From positions 640,001-704,000 of the forward strand of contig OZ253496.1 of NCBI GenBank assembly GCA_965262115.1: a stretch of DNA of 64,000 nt, written 5' to 3'. The stretch's first letter is position 1. Each line of letters begins with the position of its first letter. Source of the DNA: Nitrospinales bacterium (GTDB taxonomy: Bacteria > Nitrospinota > Nitrospinia > Nitrospinales > VA-1). Made by a program: the position numbers and the translations under genes. Under the pieces are notes generated by a model. The model was not told where the DNA came from. It was given only the letters and a program-made list of their open reading frames with translations, and made no database searches. Positions 16,684 to 56,529 of this stretch are shown one piece after another.

Positions 16684-17547
16684 TTAAGAGGCATAGGCCT
16701 GTTTCTCGAATTCGGCAGGGCTGAGATAGCCGAGATATGAGTGACGGCGCTGCCGATTATAAAACACTTCGATATATTCAAAAATATCCTTCTTTGCTTG
16801 CTGACGGGTTTTGTAGTTCCGGTTATGAATGAGTTCCACTTTGAGAGTATGGAAAAAACTCTCCGCCACGGCGTTATCCCAGCAATCGCCCTTCCGGCTC
16901 ATACTGCACTCTATCCCATGAACATTGAGCAAGGCTTGAAAATCGTTGCAGGCATATTGAACCCCCCGGTCAGAATGGTGAATCAATCCCGGTTTCATGC
17001 CGCCGTTCTTCATTGCCATATTTAAAGCTCTCATTACCAACCAATGGGTTATCCAACGATCCATGGCCCAACCAATAACTTTACGGTGGAATAAATCCAG
17101 CGTCACCGCAAGGTATAACCAGCCCTCTTGAGTCGGGATATAGGTGATATCCGAAACCCAGCATTGACCGGGCTCAGCAACATTAAACCGCCGTTGCAGT
17201 TTGTTTTTTGCCACCGGGTGATTATGTTTGGAATCGGTTGTCACCCTGAACTTTCTTTTGTGCTTGGCAACGATTCCATGCTCGCGCATAAGACGGGCAA
17301 TACGATGCCTGCCAATGGCATATCCCTTGTCTTTCAAGTCCTCATGAATTCTGGGACTGCCATAAGTCTGGCGACTCTTCTTATAAACGGTTTTGATCTC
17401 ATCAACCCATCGCTGCTTCTCACGGCTCCTCAGGCTCTCGGGGCGGCTCAGCCAGGCATAGAACCCACTTCGTCCCACTTCCAGAACCCGGCACATCGGG
17501 CTTACCGGAAATGCTTCTCGATGATCCCGTATAAACCGATATCTCAT
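16684..17547 (-). CDS. IS3 OrfB (DDE integrase)
   Basis: [26 protein letters not shown]. Confidence 0.93.
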
Positions 17548-17583
17548 TGGGAACCCTTCGAGTACCCCTTGTATGTTGTTCAT

Positions 17584-17792
17584 AAGGGGAATTTGTAGTA
17601 GTTGTACCTGTGAGCCCTGTGGGAAGCCGGTTTTGTGTTTTCCACAAGGCTCACAGGGTTTGATTCAGGGCACAATAGATCGTTTACCCCTTGGGCTTTT
17701 AAGCCCGTCCCGAAGCGCAGATCGTTGTGTCCTATTTTGATTAACCCGAACAGTTGCCTGGGCCACTGAGCCCGCATCGGCAAGGCTGGGAG
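17584..17792 (+). ncRNA. IS110 bridge RNA (5' hairpin, target-binding loop, donor-binding loop); ends approximate
   Basis: Internal-loop segments match the actual target (TACCCCTT 17685-17692; CCCGAAG 17709-17715) and the circle junction (ACAGTTGC 17750-17757; CAAG 17781-17784). Confidence 0.85.
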
Positions 17793-17800
17793 ACCAAATT

Positions 17801-18751
17801 ATGAATCAGAAACCCCATTTTATTGGCATCGATATTTCTAAACTCCATCTGGATGTTGCTGACAGCATGACTCAAGAAACCTGGCAAACCGCTAACAATG
17901 AGGAAGGAATTGCTGGTTTGGTCGAGAGTTTATCCGCCTTAAATCCTCCATTGATCGTTTTGGAAGCCACAGGCGGCTTAGAGATCCCGTTGGCTTCGGC
18001 CCTGGTTGCGGGTCGACTGCCAGTAGCCGTGGTCAACCCACGGCAAGTTCGTGATTTTGCCAAAGCCACCGGGAAACTGGCAAAAACCGATGTCATTGAT
18101 TCTCTTGTGCTGGCCCATTTTGCCAGGGCCGTACGTCCTGAGGTCAGGAAAATCAAAGACGAAGAATCTCTGGAACTCTCAGCTCTAGTGACACGCCGTC
18201 GCCAGTTGATCGAGATGCTGACCAAAGAAAAAACCCGTCTAAAACAAGCTCCAAAATGGATATGTAAAGACATTAAGGAGCATATCGAATCTCTTAAAAA
18301 ACGCTTGCGAAAAATCGATGGCGACCTTTCCAGAACCATCAAAAACAGTTCTGCCTGGCGTGAGCACGACCAGATCATACAAAGTGTTCCCGGTGCCGGT
18401 CCCGTTCTGGCTGTCAACCTCTTGGCCGGGGTTCCGGAACTTGGAGTTCTTAATCAGAAGCAAATCGCCGCCCTCATCGGTCTCGCTCCCCTCAATCGGG
18501 ACAGCGGAAAGTTCCGGGGCCGCCGGTGTATCTGGGGCGGCCGCGCCAATGTGCGTGCCGCTTTATACATGGCCGCCGTCACTGCCATGCAGCATAATCC
18601 CGTGATTCGTACCTTTTACACACGCCTCATCGAAAAGGGCAAACCCTTTAAAGTTGCCATTACCGCATGCATGAGAAAGTTATTAACGATCATCAATACC
18701 ATGATCAAAACAAAAACACTCTGGAATGAAAATCTCATTGCCAGCACTTGA
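17801..18751 (+). CDS. IS110 DEDD recombinase/transposase
   Basis: GIDISK, LEATG, KTDVID, NRDSGK, RAALYM. Confidence 0.96.
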   Translation: MNQKPHFIGIDISKLHLDVADSMTQETWQTANNEEGIAGLVESLSALNPPLIVLEATGGLEIPLASALVAGRLPVAVVNPRQVRDFAKATGKLAKTDVIDSLVLAHFARAVRPEVRKIKDEESLELSALVTRRRQLIEMLTKEKTRLKQAPKWICKDIKEHIESLKKRLRKIDGDLSRTIKNSSAWREHDQIIQSVPGAGPVLAVNLLAGVPELGVLNQKQIAALIGLAPLNRDSGKFRGRRCIWGGRANVRAALYMAAVTAMQHNPVIRTFYTRLIEKGKPFKVAITACMRKLLTIINTMIKTKTLWNENLIAST

Positions 18752-18769
18752 CATTTAACACAGTTGCTT
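18748..18769 (+). promoter_or_regulatory. -35 half of the IS110 circle-junction promoter
   Basis: TTGACA 18748-18753; joined to the left end gives a 17-bp spacer and TATGTT (17572-17577). Confidence 0.85.
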
Positions 18770-18801
18770 CGGGGCATGAAAGCCAATGAAGAGGACATCA
18801 C

Positions 18802-19077
18802 AAAGATAACTGTCGCCTTTTTTAATATGTCCCGCTCCATACGAAGGCGAGCGTTTTCTCGCCGCAACTGCTGCAACTCATCTCCCGGCTTAAGCTGTCC
18901 TTTGCCGGGAAACGCATTCCCCTGATCCTCCTCATACTCCTGTTTCCAGCGACCCAGAAGGGCAGAACGGATTCCCAGATCCCGGGACACCCGGGCAATG
19001 CTATCGCCTACTTCAATAACCAATCGAACCGCTTCTAACTTGAATTCTTTACTGAAACTCCTGCGTTTGGTTCCCAT
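18802..19077 (-). pseudogene. IS3 OrfA, 3' end interrupted
   Basis: FSKEFKLEAV...LRRENARLRMERDILKKA; A-AAA-AAG slippery site. Confidence 0.9.
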
Positions 19078-55019: not shown

Positions 55020-55097
55020 ACCCCTGCGGGGCATGAAGTTTAAGGAAATACCCGTGCCGGGCATGAAGACTAATGTTGGGGATATTACAAATATCAC
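55020..55097 (-). repeat. two nested 38-40 bp mini-elements
   Basis: inner copy 55049-55088 lies within outer copy 55020-55048 + 55089-55097. Confidence 0.65.
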
Positions 55098-55156
55098 GTC
55101 TTCGTCACGTTGTTCCTCAGAATGACAAAACAGCCTTTTATTGTCATGCTGAGCTA

Positions 55157-55239: not shown

Positions 55240-56529
55240 TGATCTTCCCCTGTTTTAGTGGACAGTTAGTTAAGAGGCATAGGCCTGTTTCTCGAATTCG
55301 GCAGGGCTGAGATAGCCGAGATATTAGTGACGGCGTTGCCGATTATAAAACACTTCGATATATTCAAAAATATCCTTCTTTGCTTGCTGACGGGTTTTGT
55401 AGTTCCGGTTATGAATGAGTTCCACTTTGAGAGTATGGAAAAAACTCTCCGCCACGGCGTTATCCCAGCAATCGCCCTTCCGGCTCATACTGCACTCTAT
55501 CCCATGAACATTGAGCAAGGCTTGAAAATCGTTGCAGGCATATTGAACCCCCCGGTCAGAATGGTGAATCAATCCCGGTTTCATGCCGCCGTTCTTCATT
55601 GCCATATTTAAAGCTCTCATTACCAACCAACGGGTTATCCAACGATCCATGGCCCAACCAATAACTTTACGGTGGAATAAATCCAGCGTCACCACAAGGT
55701 ATAACCAGCCCTCTTGAGTCGGGATATAGGTGATATCCGAAACCCAGCATTGACCGGGCTCAGCAACATTAAACCGCCGTTGCAGTTTGTTTTTTGCCAC
55801 CGGGTGATTATGTTTGGAATCGGTTGTCACCCTGAACTTTCTTTTGTGCTTGGCAACGATTCCATGCTCGCGCATAAGACAGGCAATACGATGCCTGCCA
55901 ATGGCATATCCCTTGTCTTTCAAGTCCTCATGAATTCTGGGACTGCCATAAGTCTGGCGACTCTTCTTATAAACGGTTTTGATCTCATCAACCCATCGCT
56001 GCTTCTCACGGCTCCTCAGGCTCTCGGGGCGGCTCAGCCAGGCATAGAACCCACTTCGTCCCACTTCCAGAACCCGGCACATCGGGCTTACCGGAAATGC
56101 TTCTCGATGATCCCGTATAAACCGATATCTCATTGGGAACCCTTCGAGTACCCCTTCGGGGCATGAAGACAAATGAAGAGGACATCACAAAGATAACTGC
56201 CGCCTTTTTTAATATGTCCCGCTCCATACGAAGGCGAGCGTTTTCTCGCCGCAACTGCTGCAACTCATCTCCCGGCTTAAGCTGTCCTTTGCCGGGAAAC
56301 GCATTCCCCTGATCCTCCTCATACTCCTGTTTCCAGCGACCCAGAAGGGCAGAACGGATTCCCAGATCCCGGGACACCCGGGCAATGCTATCGCCTACTT
56401 CAATAACCAATCGAACCGCTTCTAACTTGAATTCTTTACTGAAACTCCTGCGTTTGGTTCCCATAAAAACACCTCCAAAAGTGTATTATCCACACTTTTC
56501 GATGTGTCCACCAATTCAGGGGAAGATCA
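55240..56529 (-). mobile_element. IS3-family element copy 2 (1290 bp), inactive-looking
   Basis: same IRs as copy 1; orfA from 56464, orfB from 56133 with premature TAA at 55324-55326; no TSD. Confidence 0.95.
56148..56188 (-). repeat. 41-bp mini-element in the IS3 orfA/orfB junction; empty IS110 target
   Basis: removing it restores KKAAVIFSKGSQ* with an ATGA overlap to orfB. Confidence 0.85.

Follow-up and report, generated by a model that had tools for sequence, protein, structure and literature searches.

The window analysed here, a stretch of 64,000 nucleotides from a Nitrospinales genome, carries an IS110-family insertion sequence of 1,199 bp, counted with one copy of its core (17570-18768), which interrupts an IS3-family element. 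The question raised by this locus is whether the non-coding left end of the insertion sequence encodes an RNA whose guides can be read against the site that the element occupies and against its own joined ends. That IS110 elements encode bridge RNAs has been known since 2024 (Durrant et al. 2024, PMC11208160; Hiraizumi et al. 2024, PMC11208158), and thousands of orthologues have been catalogued, with 5,511 RNA-target pairs (PMC11208160). A literature search, which included Nitrospina together with IS110, returned nothing on the present element; the orthologue tables in the supplement of PMC11208160 lay outside that search and may list it. Unless stated otherwise, the features described below lie on the plus strand, and coordinates are those of the window.

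The boundaries of the element were read from occupied and empty sites in the genome that contains the window (2.68 Mb, a single contig). A BLAST search of this genome with the element returned 29 matches, namely 21 full-length copies at 98.3-100% identity, 2 full-length copies at ~88%, one copy without the first 112 bases, and 5 fragments. Recent activity was read from the identity of at least 98% among the 21 copies and from the intact 316-aa frame of 15 of the 23 full-length ones. The host IS3-family element that is split by the insertion lies on the minus strand (16684..19077), with orfB (rve domains) at 17583-16684 and orfA (HTH_Tnp_1) at 19077-18616. The genome contains 17 occurrences of the 171 bases that adjoin the element on the left; 10 of these are followed by the element and 7 continue as uninterrupted IS3. 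The empty IS3 sites read ...GAGTACCC-CT-TCGGGG... in four copies or ...TCGTGG... in three (in the longer read-out, ...GAGTACCCCTTCGGGGCATG... and ...CCCCTTCGTGGCATG..., respectively), and the occupied sites read ...TACCC-CT-TGTATG...ACAGTTG-CT-TCGGGG.... The insertion therefore amounts to 1,199 bp with one core copy, the empty site having one CT and the occupied site two (17568..17569 on the left and 18767..18768 on the right).

Between the two core copies, the body of the element (17570..18766) runs from the right donor half (RD, TGTATG...) through the left donor half (LD, ACAGTTG; 18760..18766), which is the right end of the element. In the host IS3, the left target half (LT, AGTACCC) lies at 17561..17567 and the right target half (RT, TCGGG), which is also part of a REP-like unit, lies at 18769..18773, as established from the flanks of the copies and the empty sites. 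The target deduced in this way is LT(TACCC)-CT-RT(TCGGG), and the joined ends are LD(ACAGTTG)-CT-RD(TGTAT). All 23 full-length copies have the common ends TGTATG...ACAGTTG with CT on both sides, the left junction being CT in 22 of them and TT, after an extra T, in one. The cut point in the window copy is ambiguous by 3 nt (CTT is common to both junctions), and the core was fixed as CT because the two diverged (88%) copies have the right flank CT-GCGGG(G). The first-pass annotation had placed the start of the element at 17571; this was corrected to 17570, the T after the core. Contigs from the public runs X2 and X5 (one each) skip exactly 1199 bp, from 17567 to 18767, which is no proof of excision since the genome itself has empty IS3 copies. 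The circle junction, searched for as the 14-mer ACAGTTGCTTGTAT, was found 0 times in the genome, and no back-joint (circle) was seen in the contigs of runs X1, X2, X5 and X7, a weak negative since contigs drop rare forms.

The recombinase gene (17801..18751) encodes a protein of 316 aa with the residues D11, E55, D97, D100 and S235. The protein matched the Pfam families DEDD_Tnp_IS110 (PF01548; 1.5e-25) and Transposase_20 (PF02371; 1.9e-20), and it passed the NCBIfam model NF033542, "IS110 family RNA-guided transposase", with 226.8 bits at a cut-off of 140. When phmmer was run against solved structures, the best match was the ISCro4 transposase (PDB 9t56; E = 2.4e-33 over residues 1-304, a comparison of protein sequence only), and IS621 of Escherichia coli was matched at E = 1.5e-30 over 303 residues. 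D11, E55, D97, D100 and S235-G236 were aligned opposite D11, E60, D102, D105 and S241-G242 of IS621. The recombinase is intact at 316 aa, and the DEDD and Ser motifs that had been claimed for it are in register with those of IS621. The 316-aa frame is preserved, with 0-3 substitutions, in 15 of the 23 full-length copies; six others have a common 10-bp deletion (window-equivalent 18514-18523) that leaves 264 aa, and in the two diverged copies the frame stops at 172 aa. The truncated copies retain the RNA and the ends and could be mobile only with the recombinase of another copy.

Upstream of the recombinase frame, and on the same strand, lies the 230-nt non-coding left end (17570-17800); at the right end only 15 nt separate the stop codon from the end of the element. 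The left end is predicted to encode an IS621-type bridge RNA of ~200 nt, with a 5' stem-loop and two loops after it, one target-binding and one donor-binding. The 5' stem-loop was placed at 17607..17657 from sequence and fold, and the hairpin CCTGTGAGCC/GGCTCACAGG described in the first-pass annotation is present there (17607-17616/17648-17657). The target-binding loop module (17668..17732) has an outer stem that had been drawn at 17667-17681/17720-17733; the stem exists, with its limits corrected to 17668-17681/17720-17732. As had been described, it encloses TTTACCCCT(T) at 17683-17692, a GGGC/GCCC inner hairpin (17693-17696/17703-17706) and CCCGAAG at 17709-17715. The donor-binding loop module (17745..17790) has the outer stem CCCG (17745-17748)/UGGG (17787-17790); the previously reported ACAGTTGC (17750-17757) and GGGC/GCCC inner hairpin (17760-17763/17770-17773) were found, and the contiguous GCAAG was replaced by CAAG at 17781-17784.

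The folding check proposed for this RNA gave a z-score of -3.84, and 0 of 200 shuffles were equally stable. The single-sequence fold reproduced the 5' hairpin and the target module. The minimum-energy fold paired the left donor guide (LDG) with the right donor guide (RDG), which are partly complementary via the core, and the donor loop is thus closed in it. The structure was tested on 26 pairs named in five helices in an alignment of 41 sequences. Standard pairs were found in 93.4% of cells, compared with 32.8-46.0% when the partners were slid by 1-3 columns, a comparison in which a structure taken from one of the aligned sequences tends to outscore the slid controls. Changes on both sides were present at 18 of the 26 pairs, against 9.7 in shuffles (0 of 500 shuffles as high), and in the outer stem of the target module (helix 1) they were present at 12 of 13 pairs. 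Across relatives the donor loop was almost invariant and the target loop variable.

Over the whole window, no family of Rfam 15 reached its gathering score; Rfam 15 contains no bridge RNA family. In a permissive Rfam search, sX15 (RF02234, a Xanthomonas small RNA) matched the minus strand at 17654-17810 with 35.4 bits against a gathering score of 55. This sub-threshold match spans the full model length, on the reverse strand of the bridge RNA region. A paper of 2011 describes sX15 and asX7 as a complementary, plasmid-borne small-RNA pair with 10 homologues in Stenotrophomonas (PMC3300014). Possibly the sX15/asX7 locus is the left end of an IS110 element, in which case asX7 would be on the strand of the bridge RNA. 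The layout of the region is compact: a Shine-Dalgarno-like GGGAG (17788-17792) stands 8 nt ahead of the start codon and lies within the 3' arm of the donor-loop stem.

The guide segments were read by the published rule, in which the 5' side of loop 1 carries the top strand of the left target and core, and the 3' side the reverse complement of the core and right half (PMC11208160). The left target guide (LTG), UUUACCCCU (9 nt; 17683..17691), has the same sense as LT plus the CT core. At the window site it matches 5 of 7 non-core bases plus CT, the final 5 nt of LT (TACCC) being those that pair with it, and at four other sites it matches 7 of 7. The right target guide (RTG), CCCGAAG (17709..17715), is the reverse complement of CT+TCGGG (CTTCGGG). 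The handshake positions of the target loop, CG, follow at 17716..17717, and C17716 complements G18766, the final base of LD, and not the final base of LT. In the donor loop, the LDG, ACAGUUGC (17750..17757), equals LD (ACAGTTG) plus the first core base and is identical to the element's own right end (+ C) in 23 of 23 full-length copies. The second core base is unmatched by the LDG (C17758 against T), which agrees with the published 8-nt extent of the IS621 LDG. The split RDG (17776..17784) consists of AU (17776-17777), which pairs with A17573-T17574, a 3-nt gap, and CAAG (17781-17784), which pairs with the CT core and T17570-G17571. Through ACAGUUGC and AU...CAAG the donor loop reads the joined element ends ...ACAGTTG-CT-TGTAT.... 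The donor-loop handshake positions, GC, lie at 17785..17786, and G17785 complements C17567, the final base of LT, and not the final base of LD. All four guides proposed in the first-pass annotation were legible against the actual target and donor, and the two handshake positions, further published features, were also present; the IS621-type layout with a CT core stood as well, in that segment order, polarity and lengths agree with the published IS621 rules.

IS621 was compared through its published text and the PDB protein only. As described there, the left end holds the RNA, in which a 5' stem-loop precedes a target loop that varies and a donor loop that is conserved (PMC11208160, PMC11208158), as in the present element; the CT core is also shared, as is a promoter rebuilt across the circle junction, which here is a sequence match. 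The LDG of IS621 is likewise 8 nt long, beginning with A and ending with C (A123-C130), its RDG is split into 2 nt, a 3-nt gap and 4 nt (A157-U158/C162-G165), its LTG has 9 nt, and a handshake base stands directly after the RTG and after the RDG (PMC11208158). Once strands have been exchanged, each of these IS621 handshake bases pairs with the other DNA at position 7 (PMC11208158). The recombinases have in common the RuvC-like DEDD motif and the serine of the Tnp domain. The present element differs in its RTG, which has 7 nt against 4 nt in IS621, some orthologues having longer RTGs (PMC11208160), and in its protein of 316 aa against 326 aa, matched at the E value given above. It differs further in its target sequence and in a shorter donor-loop hairpin, and it is known from sequence alone. 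A blastn search with 17660-17800 against E. coli genomes gave no match.

A family-wide comparison was based on a scan of one genome per species, which returned at least 80 loci; 55 were taken after 25 further same-assembly copies had been dropped. A length and motif filter kept 41 loci and the window, so that 14 of 56 sequences were dropped before any guide comparison. The 41 relatives share 48-65% protein identity with the window recombinase, and the closest relatives of the element's lineage, among the matches listed, are Nitrospina-type records. Guide columns were read off the alignment and identical guide pairs were collapsed, which left 39 of 42 rows. The RTG matched the element's own right flank at a mean of 4.61 of 5 bases, with 5/5 in 21 of 28 pairs; the permuted mean was 1.55 (maximum 2.43), and 0 of 10,000 permutations were as high. 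For the LTG and the own left flank the mean was 4.30 of 7 bases (37 pairs), with a permuted mean of 2.49 (maximum 3.16) and again 0 of 10,000 as high. The donor-loop handshake base was complementary to LT7 in 33 of 37 relatives (29 G:C, 4 U:A), and the target-loop handshake base was a C facing the G of LD7 in 36 of 39. As judged from the aligned sequences, the predicted helices covary and the putative guides follow each element's own flanks across the relatives. A separate candidate for a family rule, agreement between the base that follows the LTG core and the first base of the right target, was rejected; only 13 of 33 relatives fit it.

The different natural specificity that had been suggested for the element was confirmed, the target being TACCC-CT-TCGGG in a REP-like repeat. 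This target is the head (first) hairpin of a REP-like unit of 39-41 nt that starts exactly at TACCC. With the pattern TACC-C..G-GGCA[TC]GAA...A[TC]CAC[AG], 155 full units and 239 hairpin heads were counted in the genome, and the hairpin stem of the repeat covaries (CCCG/CGGG, CCCC/GGGG, CCCT/AGGG). The right flank of the copies is conserved far past the guided bases and the left flank only in TACCC-CT, a one-sided conservation that is explained by the target being the first hairpin of a repeat unit beginning at TACCC. Exact empty TACCCCTTCGGG (12-nt) sites were found 28 times, all within REP-like units, and TACCCCTGCGGG occurs 39 times in the genome. The insertion site in the window is explained in the same terms, since one repeat unit sits between IS3 orfA and orfB. 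Recognition beyond the 12 guided bases was considered for GCATGAA, to the right of the target, and rejected; this conserved motif accompanies most of the 28 empty perfect sites as well, and it therefore reflects the repeat unit and not selection by the element.

The IS110 elements ISPpu10 and ISPpu9 of Pseudomonas putida have been described as likewise inserting in a conserved intergenic stem-loop repeat (REP) (bioRxiv 10.64898/2026.03.19.712850; PMC12288879). According to the text on ISPpu10, however, its stem-loop lies next to the paired region, as a GC-rich extension on the 5' side (bioRxiv 10.64898/2026.03.19.712850), whereas here the CT core lies within the hairpin CCCC-TTC-GGGG itself. 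A REP-associated tyrosine transposase was rejected as the maker of the present repeat, Pfam Y1_Tnp being without a match in the genome (93.9% complete). Within the window the repeat is also found at 55049-55098 and 56149-56189, and an uninterrupted IS3 copy lies at about 55986-56200. Elsewhere the repeat at times forms exact tandem arrays, with four units at G000:C1:814859-815015. The TCGTGG variant of the IS3 site was occupied in 0 of 3 cases, compared with 9-10 of 13-14 matched sites, a contrast that is no more than suggestive, as the copies of IS3 did not arise independently.

Within the genome, all 23 full-length copies matched their own RTG at 5 of 5 bases. The number of non-core LT matches (of 7) was seven in 4 copies, six in 5, five in 10, four in 2 and three in 2, and the last five LT bases were poorly matched in 4 of the 23 left flanks. 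The two 88% copies carry the RTG CCCGCAG, with C at 17713, and have the flank CT-GCGGG as target. Over the 66-nt target module these two copies differ at just two positions, 17692 (U->G) and 17713 (A->C), and both changes sit where that flank base (G for T) is read. Taken together, these sequences indicate that the change at 17713 and the T->G change in the flank are a compensatory guide/target change. The two diverged copies count as about one event because of a common identical 229-nt right flank, and the independent insertions number fewer than 23; ten copies are in one IS3 site and were possibly spread with IS3. We tentatively raise the possibility, itself rather doubtful, that the genome holds a natural record of guide retargeting, with two sub-lineages whose target modules differ by two bases, each in a different REP-like sub-class (TACCC-CT-TCGGG and TACCC-CT-GCGGG), and with U17692->G reflecting a 5' guide that reads one base beyond the CT core. 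If this were true, U17692->G would represent a guide geometry not described for IS621.

A candidate promoter is assembled only when the ends are joined. The right end contains the -35 hexamer TTGACA (18748..18753), which overlaps the stop codon, and the left end contains a -10-like hexamer, TATGTT (17572..17577), of putative function, which lies 17 nt from TTGACA in the circular form only. As a sequence match, TTGACA-17-TATGTT has 10 of 12 consensus positions, in the joined form only. TTGAC was present at the same right-end offset in 27 of 32 relatives, and a promoter tool applied to the integrated left end found no comparable plus-strand promoter by its own criteria. Among the sequencing runs listed, none is recorded as RNA. 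IS621 is described as having the same arrangement, with the promoter rebuilt over the circle junction (PMC11208160), and the integrated copy is stated to be weakly expressed in PMC13626964.

By analogy with IS621, the element would excise as a circle, in which TTGACA from the right end stands 17 nt from TATGTT of the left end, so that the RNA and the 316-aa DEDD/Ser recombinase would be switched on. Both loops would then be held by a tetramer of the recombinase, which would exchange strands at the CT core, and C17716 and G17785 would pair with the partner DNA after top-strand exchange, again as in IS621. The excision step is debated for the family, with X-shaped excision complexes put forward in PMC13626964 and single-strand "half-match" excision in bioRxiv 10.64898/2026.08.31.748434.

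Bridge-RNA-guided recombination at the CT core is very probably the best explanation of the insertion, and three other explanations were weighed against it. One holds that the left end is merely a structured 5' leader or regulatory region of the recombinase mRNA, acting in translation control or as an antisense small RNA, and that its likeness to target and donor is a by-product of terminal conservation. The position of GGGAG in the 3' arm of the donor-loop stem, and the weak minus-strand match to sX15 (35.4 bits, gathering score 55), which comes from a complementary small-RNA pair (PMC3300014), would fit such a role. However, a leader does not predict that loop bases track their own flanks in 28-37 relatives while the helices covary, nor does it predict a one-base co-change of guide and target within the genome, and we regard it as very improbable as the sole explanation; leader and guide roles are not mutually exclusive. 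Least probable of all, and close to nil in our estimate, is a guide RNA of the IS1111/seekRNA type in the right end, with the left-end structure unrelated to it. The IS1111-group seekRNA elements share with the present one a DEDD recombinase and an RNA guide that chooses target and donor (Siddiquee et al. 2024, PMC11187229), but the RNA is described as lying in the right end in the IS1111 group and in the left end in the IS110 group (PMC11208160). The right end found here, with its 15 nt after the stop codon, is too short for an RNA, and every guide segment lies in the left end, so that this explanation is refuted by the anatomy of the element.

Somewhat less remote, although still improbable, is the view that the architecture is intact and the lineage no longer self-mobile, its copies stemming from hitch-hiking with IS3 and from homologous recombination. 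An identical IS3 site holds 10 of the 23 copies, some flanks are shuffled (an IS3 left flank with a non-IS3 right flank, for example), the frames are truncated in 8 of 23 copies, and 28 perfect 12-nt targets are still empty, all of which such a history would accommodate. Against it, the left flanks of 13 copies are unique and have only TACCC-CT (or a near variant) in common, with the REP-like unit on the right, as site-specific insertion predicts, and the full frame is kept in 15 copies with 0-3 amino-acid differences. With bridge-RNA-guided recombination retained as the preferred explanation, the element is an ordinary, well-supported member of a known RNA-guided system, and its mechanism is not new.

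The full guide code (LTG, RTG, LDG, split RDG and handshake bases) could be read here without experiments because the empty sites, the 23 occupied sites and a diverged sister lineage are found in one 2.7-Mb genome. The added value of the locus is modest and lies in the guide/target co-change within the genome and in the complete set of empty and occupied sites. For tool builders, it adds an orthologue that is compact, at 316 aa, and naturally has a right target guide of 7 nt. For genome biology, it provides an RNA-guided element aimed at a REP-like repeat, which, via the repeat copy inside IS3, has split 10 of 17 IS3 copies.

Several further arrangements were observed among the copies. At G000:C1:2144620-2145978, a left end with its normal left junction breaks off after 163 bases, and a full copy begins at once, at ...GTGTC-CT|TGTATG; one copy seems to have inserted into the bridge-RNA gene of another, where the site has little in common with the target beyond the CT core, and a deletion seems to have followed. 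At G000:C1:2518289-2519435, inverted fragments were found in which left-end bases 1-87 are followed by bases 55-1 on the opposite strand, the two meeting within the 5' hairpin, and a right-end piece lies ~1 kb from them. The flanks are shuffled among the 23 copies, with IS3 left flanks beside non-IS3 right flanks, and four copies have a common 56-nt right flank and differing left flanks, which suggests rearrangements between copies. The 9-mer TACCCCTTC (left target, core and two bases) precedes the target in tandem, in two or three copies, in the left flanks of the copies at G000:C1:2384092 and 2326063 and at the empty sites 2328672 and 618625, and runs X2 and X5 likewise contained such tandems as loose ends. 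The tandems may be a scar or may stem from slippage or misaligned recombination. Finally, run X7, which carries a different organism label, contained a high-depth contig of 1,200 nt that represents a variant of the element, with 44 differences and one 1-nt deletion (on window 17599-18780), and relatives of the element are therefore present in other sampled organisms.
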